Shown: positions 3,784-28,125 of the stretch, piece after piece | Layout: each line of letters begins with the position of its first letter | Position numbering within the stretch: the stretch's first letter is position 1 | Assembly: GCF_058153355.1 (NCBI RefSeq) | Contig: NZ_CM177019.1 | Length of the DNA: 64,000 nt | Direction: 5' to 3' (one strand) | Translations under genes and position numbers: made by a program | The notes under the pieces: generated by a model | Seen by the model: the letters and a program-made list of their open reading frames with translations, nothing else | Told to the model about the DNA's origin: nothing | Database searches by the model: none

Positions 3784-4629
3784 TTATTTCTCACTATCGA
3801 CCAGGCCGCGCACGAAGGCACGCTGCATCACTAAAACAATCACCACCGGAGGGATAAGCGTTAACAACATCGCCGCCATCACCGAATTCCATTCCGTGGT
3901 GCCTTCGCCTGTAGCGATCATCCCTTTGATTCCTGCCACGGTGGTGCCGAGATCAACATCGGTAATAATCAACAACGGCCACAAATACTGGTTCCAGCCG
4001 TAAATAAAAGTGATCACAAACAGCGCCGCCAGATTAGTTTTCGACAGCGGAAAAACGATGTCGCAAAAGAAACGCATTGGTGACGCACCGTCGATCCGCG
4101 CCGCTTCCACCAGCTCATCCGGCAGCGTCATAAAGAACTGGCGGAACAAGAAAGTAGCGGTCGCAGAGGCCATCAGCGGCAGCGTTAAACCAGCGTAGCT
4201 GTCAAGCATTTTCAGGTTGGCGATGACTTCTACTGTCGGGAAGATACGCACTTCAACCGGCAGCATCAGGGTGATAAAAATCATCCAAAAGAAGAGGTTA
4301 CGCAGCGGAAAACGAAACCAGACAATGGCAAATGCCGAGAGCATCGAGACGGTAATTTTGCCGAGCGTAATGCTGAACGCCATCACGAAGCTGTTAAGCA
4401 ACATCCGCCAGAACGGCGCGCTATTTGTGCCTACCCCGTTCACCCAGATGTTGTGGATGTTTTCCAACAGATGCGTGCCGGGGATGAGCGTCATCGGCGC
4501 GGCGTAGACAGCCTGTTTATCCAGCGTCGCCGCGACAAACGCCACGTACAACGGGAAGAGGATCACCGCGATCCCGAGGATCAGCATGGTATGGCTGAAT
4601 ATTGTCAGCCACGGACGGTTCTCAATCAT
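3784..4629 (-). CDS. ugpE: sn-glycerol-3-phosphate ABC transporter permease
   Basis: 281-aa polytopic membrane ORF; translationally coupled within ugp operon. Confidence 0.9.
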
Positions 4630-19910: not shown

Positions 19911-20270
19911 TTATTGTTTGCTGACAAAGCTGACAAAGCGCGTTCCTTTATAGCTCAGCGTACCTTTATCGCCCACTGTCAGGGCATGGTACTGCTGGGC
20001 GTCGAGGCGAAACGTCTGTTCCATTCCTCCGCTTTGCGGTTTGAAGCTCGCCTCATAGCGCATGCTGGTACCAGCCGGTGTCACTTCCTGCTGGCGCGAA
20101 CGGCGATCGTTAATCGGTTTTTCCCGCTTATTGCTCACCACCACCAACTTTTGCTGGAGTGGCGCTATATCATTATCAGCTTTTTCCCGTCGCTGTTGCA
20201 TAAAACGAAACGATGCGGCGACGATAATTAAGCCAATGATAACAATAAAGAAAAGAGGTGGTTTGCTCAT
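19911..20270 (-). CDS. yhhM: DUF2500 membrane-anchored protein
   Basis: 119-aa ORF with N-terminal TM helix. Confidence 0.75.
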   Translation of the reverse strand: MSKPPLFFIVIIGLIIVAASFRFMQQRREKADNDIAPLQQKLVVVSNKREKPINDRRSRQQEVTPAGTSMRYEASFKPQSGGMEQTFRLDAQQYHALTVGDKGTLSYKGTRFVSFVSKQ

Positions 20271-20410
20271 CTTTATCCCTCATCGGAAAATGCGGAAATA
20301 AGCATACCCTGCCAGTTATGGTGTTGTCATCCGTCCACCCTCGCCACTAAACTGGAAACAAGACCGTAGGCATTCCGCTTACGAAAAAATAACGAATTCA
20401 AGGAACTAAG

Positions 20411-21037
20411 ATGCTTTGGTCGTTTATCGCAGTCTGTCTTTCCGCATGGCTATCTGTGGATGCATCGTATCGTGGGCCAACCTGGCAACGCTGGGTGTTT
20501 AAACCGTTAACCCTTCTTCTCCTGCTGTTACTGGCATGGCAAGCGCCGATGTTCGACGCCATTAGTTATCTGGTGCTGGCAGGGCTGTGCGCTTCACTGC
20601 TGGGCGATGCGCTAACCCTGTTGCCACGTCAACGTCTGATGTACGCCATCGGCGCGTTTTTCCTCTCGCACCTGCTGTACACTATCTATTTCGCCAGTCA
20701 GATGACGCTCTCTTTCTTCTGGCCTCTGCCACTGGTGTTGCTGGTTCTGGGCGCGCTGTTACTGGCGATTATCTGGACGCGTCTGGAAGAGTATCGTTGG
20801 CCTATCTGCACGTTTATCGGCATGACGCTGGTGATGGTATGGCTGGCAGGTGAACTGTGGTTCTTCCGTCCGACCGCTCCGGCACTCTCTGCGTTTGTCG
20901 GCGCTTCGTTGCTGTTTATCAGTAACTTTGTCTGGCTGGGTAGTCACTATCGCCGACGCTTCCGTGCGGACAACGCGATTGCCGCCGCTTGTTATTTTGC
21001 CGGTCACTTCCTCATCGTCCGCTCGCTGTATCTCTGA
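20411..21037 (+). CDS. yhhN: YhhN-family inner membrane protein
   Basis: 208-aa polytopic membrane ORF. Confidence 0.8.
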
Positions 21038-21043
21038 TAAAAC

Positions 21044-21075
21044 TTGACTCTGGAGTCGACTCCAGAGTGTATCCT
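21044..21075 (+). promoter_or_regulatory. zntA promoter with ZntR (MerR-type) operator
   Basis: TTGACT (21044-21049), 20-bp spacer containing perfect dyad ACTCTGGAGTCGACTCCAGAGT (21047-21068), TATCCT (21070-21075); long spacer is typical of MerR-family promoters. Confidence 0.8.
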
Positions 21076-21109
21076 TCGGTTAATGAGAAAAACTTAACCG
21101 GAGGATGCC

Positions 21110-23308
21110 ATGTCGACTCCTGACAATCACGGCAAGAAAGCCCCTCAATTTGCCGCGTTCAAACCGCTACCCACGGTTCAGAACGCCAACGACTGTTGCT
21201 GCGACGGCGCATGTTCCAGCACGCCAACGCTCTCTGAAAACGTCTCCGGCACCCGCTATAGCTGGAAAGTCAGCGGCATGGACTGCGCCGCCTGCGCGCG
21301 CAAGGTAGAAAATGCCGTGCGCCAGCTTGCAGGCGTGAATCAGGTGCAGGTGTTGTTCGCCACCGAAAAACTGGTGGTGGATGCCGACAATGACATCCGT
21401 GCCCAGGTTGAATCTGCGGTGCAAAAAGCGGGCTATTCCCTGCGCGATGAACAGTCCGCCGACGAACAACAAGAATCACGCCTGAAAGAGAATCTGCCGC
21501 TGATTACGCTAATCGTGTTGATGGCAATTAGCTGGGGGCTAGAGCAGTTTAATCATCCGTTCGGGCAACTGGCGTTTATCGCGACCACGCTGGTTGGGCT
21601 GTACCCGATTGCTCGTCAGGCATTACGGCTGATCAAATCCGGCAGCTACTTCGCTATTGAAACCTTAATGAGCGTAGCCGCTATTGGTGCGCTGTTTATT
21701 GGCGCAACGGCTGAAGCTGCGATGGTGTTGCTGCTGTTTTTGATTGGTGAACGACTGGAAGGCTGGGCCGCCAGCCGCGCGCGTCAAGGGGTCAGCGCGT
21801 TAATGGCGCTGAAACCGGAAACCGCCACGCGCCTGCGTAATGGCAAGCGTGAAGAGGTAGCAATTAACAGCCTGCGTCCGGGCGATGTTATCGAAGTTGC
21901 GGCAGGTGGGCGTTTACCTGCCGACGGTAAACTGCTCTCGCCCTTTGCCAGTTTTGATGAAAGCGCCCTGACCGGCGAATCCATTCCGGTGGAGCGCGCG
22001 ACGGGTGATAAAGTTCCTGCAGGCGCCACCAGCGTAGACCGTCTGGTAACGCTGGAAGTGCTGTCAGAACCGGGTGCCAGCGCCATTGACCGGATTCTGA
22101 AACTGATCGAAGAAGCCGAAGAGCGCCGCGCGCCCATTGAGCGGTTTATCGACCGTTTCAGCCGTATTTACACGCCAGCGATTATGGCCGTCGCCCTGCT
22201 GGTGACGCTGGTGCCACCGCTGCTGTTTGCCGCAAGCTGGCAGGAGTGGATTTATAAAGGGCTGACGCTGCTGCTGATTGGCTGCCCGTGTGCGCTGGTG
22301 ATCTCAACACCTGCGGCGATCACCTCCGGGCTGGCGGCAGCAGCGCGTCATGGGGCGTTGATTAAAGGCGGTGCGGCGCTGGAACAACTAGGTCGTGTTA
22401 CCCAGGTGGCGTTTGATAAAACCGGCACGCTGACCGTCGGTAAACCGCGCGTTACCGCGATTCATCCGGCAACGGGTATTAGTGAATCTGAACTGCTGAC
22501 ACTGGCAGCGGCGGTCGAGCAAGGCGCGACGCATCCACTGGCGCAAGCCATCGTACGCGAAGCACAGGTTGCTGAACTCGCCATTCCCGCCGCCGAATCA
22601 CAGCGGGCGCTGGTCGGGTCTGGTATTGAAGCACTGATTAACGGTGAGCGCGTGTTGATATGCGCTGCCGGAAAACATCCGGCTGTTGCATTTGCTGGTT
22701 TAATTAACGAACTGGAAAGCGCCGGGCAAACGGTAGTACTGGTGGTGCGTAACGATGAAGTGCTGGGTGTCATTGCATTGCAGGATACCCTGCGCGCCGA
22801 CGCCGCAACTGCCATCAGCGAACTGAGCGCCCTGGGTGTCAAAGGGGTGATCCTCACTGGCGATAATCCACGCGCCGCGGCGGCAATTGCCGGGGAGTTG
22901 GGGCTGGAATTTAAAGCGGGCCTATTACCAGAAGATAAAGTCAAAGCGGTGACCGAGCTGAATCAACATGCGCCTCTGGCGATGGTCGGTGACGGTATTA
23001 ACGACGCGCCAGCGATGAAAGCCGCCACCATTGGGATTGCAATGGGCAGTGGCACAGATGTGGCGCTGGAAACCGCCGATGCAGCATTAACCCATAACCA
23101 CCTGCGCGGCCTGGCGCAGATGATTGAACTGGCACGCGCCACTCACGCCAACATCCGCCAGAACATCACCATTGCGCTGGGGCTGAAAGGGATCTTCCTC
23201 GTCACAACGCTGTTAGGGATGACCGGACTATGGCTGGCGGTGCTGGCAGATACGGGTGCGACGGTGCTGGTGACGGCGAATGCGTTAAGATTGTTGCGCA
23301 GGAAGTAA
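21110..23308 (+). CDS. zntA: Zn/Cd/Pb-exporting P1B-type ATPase
   Basis: 732-aa ORF with N-terminal GMDCAAC metal-binding motif, CPC, DKTGTLT phosphorylation site, GDGINDAP. Confidence 0.95.
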   Translation: MSTPDNHGKKAPQFAAFKPLPTVQNANDCCCDGACSSTPTLSENVSGTRYSWKVSGMDCAACARKVENAVRQLAGVNQVQVLFATEKLVVDADNDIRAQVESAVQKAGYSLRDEQSADEQQESRLKENLPLITLIVLMAISWGLEQFNHPFGQLAFIATTLVGLYPIARQALRLIKSGSYFAIETLMSVAAIGALFIGATAEAAMVLLLFLIGERLEGWAASRARQGVSALMALKPETATRLRNGKREEVAINSLRPGDVIEVAAGGRLPADGKLLSPFASFDESALTGESIPVERATGDKVPAGATSVDRLVTLEVLSEPGASAIDRILKLIEEAEERRAPIERFIDRFSRIYTPAIMAVALLVTLVPPLLFAASWQEWIYKGLTLLLIGCPCALVISTPAAITSGLAAAARHGALIKGGAALEQLGRVTQVAFDKTGTLTVGKPRVTAIHPATGISESELLTLAAAVEQGATHPLAQAIVREAQVAELAIPAAESQRALVGSGIEALINGERVLICAAGKHPAVAFAGLINELESAGQTVVLVVRNDEVLGVIALQDTLRADAATAISELSALGVKGVILTGDNPRAAAAIAGELGLEFKAGLLPEDKVKAVTELNQHAPLAMVGDGINDAPAMKAATIGIAMGSGTDVALETADAALTHNHLRGLAQMIELARATHANIRQNITIALGLKGIFLVTTLLGMTGLWLAVLADTGATVLVTANALRLLRRK

Positions 23309-23316
23309 AAGTGTTG

Positions 23317-23339
23317 CCTGATAGCCTCTGGCTATCAGG
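23317..23339. terminator. hairpin between convergent zntA and small ORF
   Basis: Perfect inverted repeat CCTGATAGCC-TCTG-GGCTATCAGG; no strong U-tract. Confidence 0.4.
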
Positions 23340-23340
23340 C

Positions 23341-23649
23341 TTAGTGCTGGGCCGGGAACGGCGGCATAGTCAGGAAAGCATAATAAAGCGCTAACATCAG
23401 AATGACGGAGATAACACAGCATCCAGCAACCAGGCGGGATGCTATGGATGGCCTTTTGAACATCAACCACAGGGCATAAGCAAGCCCGACACCGTTAAGT
23501 AAAGGTAAAAAAATCATTAGCCAGAGCCAACCCCAGGCAAGTACCCCCAGCCATCCCCCCACGACGATAAAAACAGGGATCAGCCAATTGGGGGTGAAGA
23601 TCGCGAGCAATCCCAGCAATGCCAGACAAACTGGAATTAAATAATCCAT
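23341..23649 (-). CDS. hypothetical small inner membrane protein
   Basis: 102-aa ORF with three predicted hydrophobic helices, convergent with zntA, directly beside the IS insertion; I do not recall a K-12 gene here. Confidence 0.35.
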   Translation of the reverse strand: MDYLIPVCLALLGLLAIFTPNWLIPVFIVVGGWLGVLAWGWLWLMIFLPLLNGVGLAYALWLMFKRPSIASRLVAGCCVISVILMLALYYAFLTMPPFPAQH

Positions 23650-23700
23650 TTGTGCATTCCATTACGTTTGCGTGCCGGATGCGGCGTAAACGCCTTATCT

Positions 23701-24926
<1,226 letters not shown>

Positions 24927-24956
24927 CATGCCTGCAATCTGGGAAACCGGGGTAGA

Positions 24957-24988
<32 letters not shown>

Positions 24989-25142
24989 AGGGCATTGAAC
25001 TCGTAGGCATGATAAGACGCGACAGCGTCGCATCAGGCATTGCGCACCGTATCGCCAGATGCAGCTTGAACGTTTTATCCGTCCTACAAACCGGTTGCAA
25101 GCCGCAAAATTGAGCGCGATCGGTCCGCTAGCCTGATTCACC

Positions 25143-25388
25143 TTACCCCGATTTGCGAATCAAATAACGATAAGGCAGTCCATCGGTCTCTTTCGCAACC
25201 AGTTCGTGTTCCATAAAGGTACAAAACCCAGGAATATCGCGTGTCGTCGCCGGATCGTCAGCAATAATCAGCAACGTTTCACCTGGCTGCATATTGCGCA
25301 CAGTTTTGCGCACCATCATTACTGGTTCCGGGCAGCGCAGGCCAAGTGCGTCGAGTGTGTGGTCAGGGCTGGAAAAGAGATCGGTCAT
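25143..25388 (-). CDS. tusA: sulfur carrier protein TusA
   Basis: 81-aa ORF with CPxP motif (LRCPEPVMM). Confidence 0.9.
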
Positions 25389-25608
25389 TTTCTTCTCATC
25401 ACATAAAAAAACGGCGCTAGTTTACGCCCTGTGAGTCCGTAAGCAAACCAGGTTAACGATTGCGTGAAAATTAACCATTGCATTGTCAACGTAAAGCAGT
25501 ATCATGCGGCGGCTCGAAAAAAGGGTCAGCACGTTATTATGTTAAGGTAACAGACGTGTCGTACGTATTGGGTTCCCTCACCCCAATGGTTAATCAAAAA
25601 GGTACAAT

Positions 25609-26274
25609 ATGAACGTTTTCTCGCAAACTCAACGCTATAAGGCGTTGTTCTGGTTATCGTTATTTCATCTGTTGGTGATCACCTCCAGTAACTATCTGGT
25701 TCAGCTTCCCGTATCCATTTTTGGTTTCCATACCACCTGGGGCGCGTTTAGCTTTCCGTTTATTTTCCTTGCTACCGACCTGACTGTGCGTATTTTTGGC
25801 GCACCGCTGGCCCGTCGTATCATCTTTGCGGTGATGATCCCGGCGTTACTGATCTCCTACGTCATCTCGTCGCTGTTCTATATGGGTTCCTGGCAGGGAT
25901 TCGGCGCGCTCGCCCACTTCAATCTGTTTGTCGCCCGTATCGCCACCGCCAGTTTCATGGCCTACGCGCTGGGGCAAATCCTCGACGTGCACGTTTTTAA
26001 CCGCCTGCGTCAGAGTCGTCGCTGGTGGCTGGCACCGACGGCTTCCACCCTGTTTGGTAACGTCAGCGACACGCTGGCCTTCTTCTTCATTGCCTTCTGG
26101 CGCAGCCCAGATGCCTTTATGGCTGAACACTGGATGGAAATCGCGCTGGTCGATTACTGTTTCAAAGTGTTAATCAGTATCGTTTTCTTCCTGCCAATGT
26201 ATGGCGTATTACTCAATATGCTGTTGAAAAGACTGGCAGATAAATCCGAAATCAACGCTTTGCAGGCGAGTTAA
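25609..26274 (+). CDS. yhhQ: queuosine precursor transporter
   Basis: 221-aa polytopic membrane ORF. Confidence 0.85.
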   Translation: MNVFSQTQRYKALFWLSLFHLLVITSSNYLVQLPVSIFGFHTTWGAFSFPFIFLATDLTVRIFGAPLARRIIFAVMIPALLISYVISSLFYMGSWQGFGALAHFNLFVARIATASFMAYALGQILDVHVFNRLRQSRRWWLAPTASTLFGNVSDTLAFFFIAFWRSPDAFMAEHWMEIALVDYCFKVLISIVFFLPMYGVLLNMLLKRLADKSEINALQAS

Positions 26275-26346
26275 AGGTTCGTTATCAGAGTTGTGATAAG
26301 ATGGATGAATGAGCCGTTATGGCCGTTTATCGAAAGGAAGAAGTCA

Positions 26347-26904
26347 ATGCGCAATCTGGTTAAATATGTCGGAATTGGCCTGCTGGTTATGGGGCTTGCG
26401 GCCTGTGATGATAAAGACACTAACGCTACGGCGCAGGGTTCGGTCGCGGAAAGTAACGCTACCGGGAATCCCGTCAACCTGCTTGATGGCAAGTTAAGTT
26501 TCTCGCTGCCAGCGGATATGACCGACCAGAGCGGTAAGCTGGGAACGCAGGCTAATAACATGCATGTCTGGTCCGACGCCACCGGGCAAAAAGCAGTCAT
26601 CGTCATCATGGGCGATGATCCGAAAGAAGATCTGGCGGTGCTGGCGAAGCGCCTGGAAGATCAGCAACGTAGCCGCGATCCGCAGCTGCAAGTGGTAACC
26701 AATAAAGCCATTGAGCTGAAAGGTCACAAAATGCAGCAGTTAGACAGCATTATCTCCGCGAAAGGCCAGACGGCGTACTCTTCCGTTATTCTGGGTAACG
26801 TGGGTAATCAACTGCTGACCATGCAAATTACGCTGCCAGCTGACGATCAGCAAAAAGCACAGACCACCGCAGAAAACATCATTAATACGCTGGTTATTCA
26901 GTAA
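26347..26904 (+). CDS. dcrB: periplasmic lipoprotein DcrB
   Basis: Start set at [20 protein letters not shown] (lipobox LAAC), 185 aa. Confidence 0.85.
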
Positions 26905-26907
26905 GTT

Positions 26908-28125
26908 TTAAGATGATGAGATGGCCTCAGGTACTTCCACCGGAGGCCGTTTTTTTAATCGCCACGTCAGTAATAACGCGATTGCGACCAGTCCCGCCGC
27001 CGCCAGATAAATCACCGGGACGCCCGCCCAACTCATCACCAGCCCAGCCAGTGGTCCGGTCACGCCAAGCGATAAATCCATAAATACGGTGTAAGTTGCC
27101 AGCGCCGCCCCCTGATTCTGCTGCGGCACTGCTTTTACCGCCACTACGCCCAATGCCGGGAACACCAGCGAAAACCCCGCCCCCGCGAGTAAGACGCCAA
27201 TTTTCGCCATCCACGGCATAGTCGCCACGCCAACCAGTAGCAGGCCGATTATCTCAACGCTAAAGCAGAGCATCGCCACATTTAAGCCGCCGATACGGTT
27301 AATGCCGTTAGGAAATAACAAACGCGTACCGACAAACGCACAGCTAAACAGCGTCAACGCGAAAGCCGCACCGTCCCAACCTTTAGCGTCATAAAACAGC
27401 GTGATAAAAGTGGCGATAACGCCAAATCCGGCGGAAGCCAGTGCCAGCGCCATGCCGTACAGCCAGACGCGCCCAAGCACCGCGCGAAACGGCAGCGGTT
27501 TGCCTTTACTGGCTTTTACCGTCGGACGCGGGATCGCCAACAAAATGGCCACCAGCGCCACGCCCATAATGATTAACGCTAACGCCTGCAAGCCGCCCCA
27601 GTGATAAAACACGACACCTAACGGCGCACCCATCGCCATCGCCCCGTAAGTGACAATGCCGTTCCACGAAATCACCCGCCCGATATGCAGCGAACCCACC
27701 ACGCCAACGCCCCATAGGGTCGATCCCGTTCCGGCAAAACTTTGCCCAATCCCAAGGATCACGCGCCCCAGGCACAGTAATAACAGGCTGATGACGGGCA
27801 GACTGGCGGTTAATCCTGCCGTCAGATACCCCAAACCGCTCAAAAAGCAGCCGCATAAACCGAAGACGACAATCTTTTTAGGTCCCAGCAAATCGGCGTA
27901 ACGTCCGGCATGAGGGCGGCTCAGCAAGGTGGCGAAATATTGCAGGCTGATAACCAATCCTGCCCAGAAAGCGCTAAAGCCCATCACATCATGGACATAG
28001 CCCGGTAATACAGCGAGCGGCAACCCGATGGTGAGGTAGCTGGCGAAGTTAAACATGACAATGGAGACAATGCGCAAATTCAGGCGCAATCCGTTTAGCG
28101 CGGGTTCGGCTACGGGTTCGGGCAT
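26908..28125 (-). CDS. yhhS: MFS transporter
   Basis: Start set at MPEPVAEPALNG (ATG 28123-28125), 405 aa, 12-TM profile. Confidence 0.85.
   Translation of the reverse strand: MPEPVAEPALNGLRLNLRIVSIVMFNFASYLTIGLPLAVLPGYVHDVMGFSAFWAGLVISLQYFATLLSRPHAGRYADLLGPKKIVVFGLCGCFLSGLGYLTAGLTASLPVISLLLLCLGRVILGIGQSFAGTGSTLWGVGVVGSLHIGRVISWNGIVTYGAMAMGAPLGVVFYHWGGLQALALIIMGVALVAILLAIPRPTVKASKGKPLPFRAVLGRVWLYGMALALASAGFGVIATFITLFYDAKGWDGAAFALTLFSCAFVGTRLLFPNGINRIGGLNVAMLCFSVEIIGLLLVGVATMPWMAKIGVLLAGAGFSLVFPALGVVAVKAVPQQNQGAALATYTVFMDLSLGVTGPLAGLVMSWAGVPVIYLAAAGLVAIALLLTWRLKKRPPVEVPEAISSS

Follow-up and report, generated by a model that had tools for sequence, protein, structure and literature searches.

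We found that X, a 102-codon open reading frame between zntA and tusA, is an uncharacterised and taxonomically restricted accessory gene for a small inner-membrane protein, and that ancestrally it was probably the promoter-distal cistron of a tusA operon; the gene now appears to be decaying. The gene lies in a window of 64,000 nucleotides (the whole stretch of DNA analysed here; contig NZ_CM177019.1 of assembly GCF_058153355.1), where dcrB also belongs to the neighbourhood of zntA, X, tusA and yhhQ. In window positions, X and its setting are:

20411-21037, plus strand: yhhN
21110-23308, plus strand: zntA (Zn/Cd/Pb P-type ATPase), convergent neighbour of X
23316-23340, no strand assigned: hairpin between the stop codons of zntA and X, seen by folding and kept across loci
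23341-23649, minus strand: gene X, from the list of open reading frames (ATG 23649-23647, TAA 23343-23341)
23507-23513, within X: A7/T7 homopolymer read from the sequence (codons 46-48, ATT TTT TTA)
23657-23660, minus strand: Shine-Dalgarno-like GGAA of X, 8 nt before the ATG
25143-25388, minus strand: tusA (sulfur-carrier protein), 5' of X on the same strand
25609-26274, plus strand: yhhQ

X and zntA are convergent, as the initial annotation had stated, with 32 nt between their stop codons. Its remark on a weak ribosome-binding site also holds, as only GGAA is found, 8 nt before the ATG. The GC content of X (0.498, with a GC3 of 0.563) is unremarkable against the 0.519 of the whole window, and its composition is native.

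X is very probably a real coding gene, judging from how its sequence varies. Nine Escherichia orthologues (from E. coli, E. albertii, E. whittamii and cryptic clades, at least five species) are each 309 nt long and contain no stops and no indels at nucleotide identities of 90.6-99.7%, and in the natural variants of 99 and 105 aa the change in length is a whole number of codons, which keeps the frame. Over four phylogenetically non-overlapping pairs there were 48.2 synonymous and 45.8 non-synonymous changes, giving a pN/pS of 0.31 with a significant synonymous excess (binomial p = 2.6e-8), and the variable sites were distributed over codon positions 1/2/3 as 21/16/39 (p = 0.003). The reading frame, whose conservation in relatives the initial annotation had proposed as a check, is thus kept throughout the genus under purifying selection. 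Pairwise dN/dS of X was 0.14-0.69; the neighbouring genes are tighter, with 0.01-0.05 for yhhQ and ~0.05 for zntA, and the pN/pS of X is 6-30 times above either. These values indicate that purifying selection on X is real but relaxed; the gene is dispensable.

It is highly improbable that X is merely a chance open frame or a dead pseudogene, for instance within DNA flanking zntA or tusA on the 3' side, that PGAP called for its length alone. Such an origin would fit a frame that matches no family or domain, has a weak Shine-Dalgarno sequence and no detected promoter, is often deleted or frameshifted, and shares its strand with a second frame that is also almost open (0-2 stops). Weighing more heavily on the other side are the pN/pS of 0.31 (p ~3e-8) with its third-position bias, the nine genus-wide orthologues without indel or stop together with the in-frame length variants, and homologues of 33-40% identity that sit in the same slot behind a conserved ribosome-binding motif. 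As for the promoter, a sigma-70-like scan found none close to X, either in the window or in the IS-free allele, and none in the tusA-X gap of Huaxiibacter, but the scan is crude and insensitive, having missed the promoter that tusA must have, and its silence is not evidential. We also observed a 55-aa alternative-frame ORF overlapping the 5' half of X (window 23495-23662, minus strand).

The X protein has a GRAVY of 1.46, with three basic residues and one acidic residue. Kyte-Doolittle analysis revealed hydrophobic stretches at about residues 5-20, 24-62 and 71-92, and AlphaFold2, run on a 15-sequence alignment, placed helices at 4-18, 24-65 and 69-94 (mean pLDDT 78). The initial annotation of a 102-aa ORF with three hydrophobic segments is therefore confirmed by the ORF list, the hydropathy profile and the predicted helices. 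The middle stretch, at about 40 residues, is long enough for two membrane spans. The first part of the protein contains a putative repeat, positioned as follows:

23530-23643, minus strand: putative internal tandem duplication of 57 nt, made up of codons 3-21 (23587-23643) and codons 22-40 (23530-23586)

Codons 3-21 (YLIPVCLALLGLLAIFTPN) resemble codons 22-40 (WLIPVFIVVGGWLGVLAWG), with 30 of 57 nt identical at an offset of 57, the best of 90 offsets. The signal is modest; among 2000 shuffles of the codons, 9 scored as high. The 102-aa Escherichia protein is longer than P0039, an 83-aa homologue described below, by exactly 19 codons. From the repeat and this length difference together we infer a 57-nt tandem duplication that would have added one helix.

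The only charged cluster of X is K65-R66 with R72, and there is almost no extramembrane mass. By the positive-inside rule these three residues would mark a cytoplasmic loop, which suggests that the short homologues are N-in/C-out with three spans and Escherichia X is N-out/C-out with four, with a probable turn around residues 39-42, where E. albertii has WGEPW. The second residue agrees with N-in versus N-out, being K or R in the short homologues and D in Escherichia. Few residues are invariant in the family (P25, G32, W33, G55, L60, M63, R72, S81, M85, L88 and F98). No cysteine is among them, as C8, C77 and C78 of X are not kept in P0039 or P0042, and the C-terminal histidine is kept in P0039 and absent from P0042; nothing therefore suggests metal or sulfur chemistry.

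Searches of family and structure collections placed X in no known group. A Pfam-A scan gave no match to X at E <= 1, the distant homologues had nothing above threshold in Pfam, NCBIfam, PADLOC or PHROGs, and a profile search of PDB sequences gave no match. A Foldseek comparison of the predicted structure with the PDB returned none at E <= 0.001, only generic helical hairpins. In NCBIfam the best match was NF009243 (MnhF-like), which scored 16.4 bits where the cut-off is 95, and we rejected an MnhF-like identity as compositional. Our search of the literature on tusA with zntA, or with small membrane proteins, found nothing about gene X.

An exhaustive HMMER profile search of 1.84 billion representative proteins recovered only the X cluster, its fragments and two distant homologues, P0039 (83 aa, E = 1.5e-5) and P0042 (84 aa, E = 8.8e-4). 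P0045 (86 aa) came to light in a further profile search, in which E-values ran from 1e-22 to 5e-14. P0042 comes from Huaxiibacter chinensis and from a genome labelled Lelliottia amnigena (WP_442359237.1, ANG94608.1), and P0039 and P0045 come from two metagenomic (uncultured) enterobacteria. The phylogenetic spread of the family is very patchy. BLASTP of X against P0039 gave 39% identity (E = 2e-16), and another comparison within the family gave E = 4e-15. These 83-86-aa proteins are like X in their 33-40% identity, their place in the tusA slot, their ribosome-binding motif, and the motifs NG.GL...AL..M and (A/I)(S/T)R. They differ in being 19 residues shorter, with three helices instead of four, and in having other 3' neighbours (dctPQM or a 162-aa gene).

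Each of the three distant genes follows tusA directly and in the same orientation, giving the order dcrB-yhhQ|tusA-X-...-zntA, and tusA was upstream of X on its strand, with yhhQ|tusA...zntA synteny, in the window, in the nine Escherichia loci and in loci L010-L015. The TusA proteins encoded beside X and beside P0039 are ~86% identical and the 162-165-aa neighbours 64%, against 39% for X itself, indicating that X is fast-evolving within a conserved neighbourhood. The motif (A/T)GGAA(T/G)(G/A)C stands 6-13 nt before the ATG in 12 of 12 loci, including those of homologues with 33-40% protein identity; its ribosome-binding part reads AAGGAA in the distant loci and TGGAAT in Escherichia. This conservation supports the annotated start of X and shows the weak Escherichia site to be a degraded form of a good one.

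The 3' side of X is more variable. In four loci a gene of 162-165 aa, annotated by PGAP as a DUF2004 domain-containing protein, lies between X and zntA:

L006, 3869-4366: E. albertii
L008, 3878-4372: Escherichia sp. MOD1-EC7003
L003, 2450-2944: E. coli GF4-3
L010, 688-1176: uncultured enterobacterium

Pfam and NCBIfam scans of this gene gave no match. It is missing from the window and appears to be another ancestral gene that the zntA-tusA region has lost. In Huaxiibacter, dctPQM intervenes between the X homologue and zntA. The constant partner of X in every lineage is tusA, not zntA.

We consider it reasonably likely, from this gene order, that X was ancestrally co-transcribed with tusA. The tusA-X spacers are 36, 36 and ~37-49 nt in the distant loci, without REPs; in Escherichia the spacer is 136-450 nt and REP-containing, so that co-transcription is not assured there. 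A direct functional link between X and TusA is a separate matter, and we regard it as unlikely. TusA-like carriers encoded beside an integral membrane protein occur in YeeD-YeeE (thiosulfate uptake) and YedF-YedE, and pairs of this type are, to our knowledge, the only precedent for a connection between TusA and the membrane. YeeE and YedE are proteins of ~350-400 aa with the Sulf_transp domain (PF04143) and conserved cysteines, encoded 5' of the TusA-like gene. X, in contrast, has no PF04143 match and no conserved cysteine, and lies 3' of tusA. By analogy with such pairs, X and its 83-86-aa relatives might be a TusA-associated family that tethers or gates TusA at the inner membrane, in which case the loss of X would reflect rewired sulfur trafficking and not decay; we judge this quite unlikely.

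X has a more general likeness to AcrZ, KdpF, MgtS and CydX, which are small, very hydrophobic proteins without enzymatic motifs, often encoded by a distal cistron and frequently missed or unnamed. X too is small, hydrophobic and free of enzymatic motifs. Those proteins, however, have fewer than 50 aa, one helix and a demonstrated partner each, whereas X has 3-4 helices and is unrelated to all of them in sequence.

Between zntA and X we found a hairpin whose stems (23316-23326 and 23330-23340) form 11 perfect pairs around a 3-nt loop; the perfect hairpin described in the initial annotation (23317-23339) is real and slightly larger. Its folding energy on the strand of X is -20.6 kcal/mol (z = -5.2 against shuffles), and it is kept in every locus where X abuts zntA. 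A terminator consensus scan flagged 23316-23340 on neither strand, the T-tail being too short. The hairpin is probably a shared 3'-end stabiliser or a weak bidirectional terminator of zntA and X. In E. whittamii (L009, ~3810-3840) the loop is inverted, reading TCT on the X coding strand where AGA is found elsewhere, with the stem unchanged, and in locus L007 the stem has one mismatch. Comparison with the E. coli strain E200086 (L001) showed 99.7-100% identity over X, tusA and yhhQ and only 97.1% (dS 0.10) over zntA (window 21110-23308; L001 811-3009). This contrast suggests a mosaic ancestry with a recombination breakpoint at or near the hairpin. The zntA of the window is also unusually divergent from that of K-12 (94.5%).

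The hairpin shared with zntA, noted in the initial annotation, raises the question of whether X assists or regulates the metal exporter ZntA as an accessory subunit or regulator, in the way that AcrZ, KdpF and MgtS act with transporters. X directly adjoins zntA in the window with a 3' hairpin in common, and small membrane proteins commonly modulate transporters, which favours such a role. The adjacency is not conserved, though, making the role unlikely: X and zntA are kept apart by the 164-165-aa gene in E. albertii, MOD1-EC7003, E. coli GF4-3 and L010, and by dctPQM in Huaxiibacter. Furthermore, X and zntA are convergent and hence not co-transcribed, C8, C77 and C78 are not conserved in P0039 or P0042 and the terminal histidine occurs only in P0039, and the ZntA of K-12 works without X. 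We therefore give a partnership with ZntA hardly any probability.

The same features can be read in terms of toxicity, with X as a membrane-damaging protein like the type I toxins, held low by its weak ribosome-binding site and by antisense read-in from zntA, which would explain its frequent loss. The small size of X, its GRAVY of 1.46, its weak Shine-Dalgarno sequence, its convergence with zntA across nothing but a hairpin, and its frequent inactivation and deletion all agree with this. Known type I toxins (Hok, TisB, Ibs, Ldr and similar) are typically shorter than 60 aa with a single helix; members of the X family, by contrast, have 83-102 aa and 3-4 helices. The position in an operon behind a housekeeping gene and the good AAGGA Shine-Dalgarno sequence of the short homologues also argue against a toxin, and the Huaxiibacter homologue is not convergent with zntA. 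Scans of X with PADLOC (anti-phage defence) and PHROGs (phage proteins) gave no matches, and Rfam at relaxed thresholds found only REP-like naRNA4 in 20000-27000, with no sRNA or antisense candidate; the lack of a PADLOC match and of a known antisense RNA family counts against this reading as well. We hold a toxin-like role to be very unlikely.

The distribution of X among 5426 complete E. coli genomes was as follows:

317 of 5426 (5.8%): X present, always chromosomal and always annotated 'hypothetical protein'
4573 of 5426 (84%): K-12-type junction, without X
~536 of 5426: other zntA-tusA alleles

X is thus missing from 94% of complete E. coli genomes. Consistent with the initial annotation, which did not recognise the ORF from K-12, the zntA-tusA gap of MG1655 is only 101 bp and holds no trace of X. 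That K-12 spacer (L004 3151-3251) is mostly a GC-rich repeat, CCCCTCGCCCCTCTGGGGAGAGGGTTAGGGTGAGGGG, which may resemble the boxC repeat, has several BLAST matching places per genome (median 4), and is held in common with the X-bearing O145 allele (L002 3351-3494). E. coli Z0117EC0054 (L016 2322-2589), from the group of other alleles, has a third form of the spacer, in which X is deleted, and a remnant of a hairpin arm (GGCTATCAG) and a full REP/BIME cluster are kept; we read this allele as a second deletion, independent of the K-12-type one.

Outside E. coli, X is intact in E. albertii, E. whittamii, E. marmotae, E. ruysiae and further Escherichia clades, and it occupies the same tusA-zntA slot in E. 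albertii, E. whittamii, E. marmotae/ruysiae-type strains and E. coli. The simplest history suggested by these alleles is that X was ancestral to Escherichia and was then lost repeatedly within E. coli, at least twice independently. The initial suggestion that the ORF may be strain-specific therefore stands in relation to K-12, with 317 of 5426 genomes carrying X, and fails in that the gene was not gained by the window strain; it was lost from most E. coli. The suggestion that it might be unannotated was wrong, as PGAP/RefSeq lists a 'hypothetical protein' wherever X occurs, for example WP_032303952.1 (E200086) and WP_000385059.1 (O145 RM9154). These RefSeq Escherichia entries, like UniProt A0A7L5XAT8 from E. 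marmotae, represent the same gene at the same locus, being 84-99% identical and mostly 102 aa long. The window allele differs from X of E200086 by one residue (G76 for A76); it alone has IS621 upstream, and otherwise shows no difference in kind from the RefSeq entries.

Strain-specific horizontal acquisition, either together with the IS or in a small island next to zntA, is very improbable against this history. It would account for the adjoining mobile element and for X being missing in K-12 and in 94% of complete E. coli genomes; in addition, the E. coli alleles differ by <=8% and the O145 allele is nearest to that of E1V33, a cryptic-clade strain, a pattern that import by recombination could produce. 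Yet X has the same tusA-zntA position across Escherichia and lies beside tusA in other genera, its composition is native, X-less alleles keep remnants (part of the hairpin) that indicate deletion, and IS621 was at this site in 0 of 5426 complete genomes, showing that the IS came later than X.

Decay is also visible within the gene, as ~10% of the distinct database sequences of X are frameshifted or truncated. The truncated variants (49-61 aa; P0032-P0036, P0043, P0044 and P0046) diverge right after '...WLMIF', at the A7/T7 run. This run (23507-23513) may be a slippage hot spot, or the variants may contain homopolymer sequencing errors. Some alleles are frameshifted in the N-terminal third. Frameshifted alleles of E. 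marmotae and E. coli have been called from the ATG of the 55-aa alternative-frame ORF ('MECTNGLF...') into the X frame, and such alternative starts give rise to chimeric database 'proteins' of 103-106 aa.

In the window strain, X has also been separated from tusA by an insertion. The initial annotation had placed the ORF beside a REP occupied by an IS, and we found that IS621, at 23704-24982, splits this REP:

23670-23703, no strand assigned: left part of the REP, the IS621 target, with a sub-threshold Rfam naRNA4 match at 23670-23704, collinear with the uninterrupted REP/BIME of E200086
23704-24982, plus strand: IS621 (IS110 family), 1279 bp, delimited by alignment to the IS-free allele of E. 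coli E200086
23898-24878: IS621 transposase (NCBIfam NF033542, IS110 RNA-guided transposase, 253 bits against a cut-off of 140)
24920-24901, minus strand (that of X): terminator-like site inside IS621, from a terminator scan
24983-25142, no strand assigned: rest of the REP/BIME spacer from IS621 to the tusA stop, by alignment to E200086

The element, which we take to be of the bridge-RNA type of recombinase within the IS110 family, is ~1.28 kb long, encodes an IS110-type RNA-guided transposase and sits inside a REP. Its assignment rests on RefSeq copies that are 99% identical and named 'IS110-like element IS621 family transposase'. On the far side of the insertion, 25006-25084 matches Rfam naRNA4 (REP-derived) with 52.7 bits. 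The REP is a known type of IS621 target, as described in two papers (PMC1525189, PMC11208160). Native sequence 5' of the X ATG amounts to 54 nt, containing the partial REP, and is followed by IS621. The X-IS621 junction occurred in 0 of 5426 complete E. coli genomes, with no IS at exactly that site, indicating that the insertion is recent and private to the window strain. We rejected the idea that IS621 had carried X in, as an IS at this site is unique to the window strain. Genomes with IS621-like sequence had a median of 2 and a maximum of 27 matching places.

We propose the following course of events for X. Ancestrally, X would have been the second cistron of a tusA-X unit, encoding a three-helix protein behind an AAGGAA site. 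In the Escherichia lineage the 19-codon internal duplication would have added a fourth helix and probably moved the N-terminus to the periplasm, and REP/BIME elements would have built up between tusA and X. The REPs and the degraded Shine-Dalgarno sequence may have weakened expression of X, and the gene appears to be in the course of being lost. In the window strain, IS621 would have entered the REP 54 nt before the start of X, so that 1.3 kb and a terminator-like hairpin now intervene before the tusA promoter. IS621 thus probably uncouples X from tusA transcription in this strain, leaving X poorly transcribed or silent with its sequence intact. Rather than an enzyme or transporter, X would most plausibly be a membrane partner of a structural or accessory kind.

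What is new here is that X is supported as a real gene by selection and deep synteny, that its constant partner is tusA, and that it belongs to a very small family without a curated model. Taken alone, X is an accessory gene of minor weight that databases already list as 'hypothetical protein'. Its interest lies in being, as these alleles suggest, an ancestral Escherichia gene caught while it is being lost, through deletions, homopolymer frameshifts and IS621, and so an example of small-gene decay. If X does interact with TusA, it may add a membrane component to a sulfur relay that has been thought wholly cytoplasmic.
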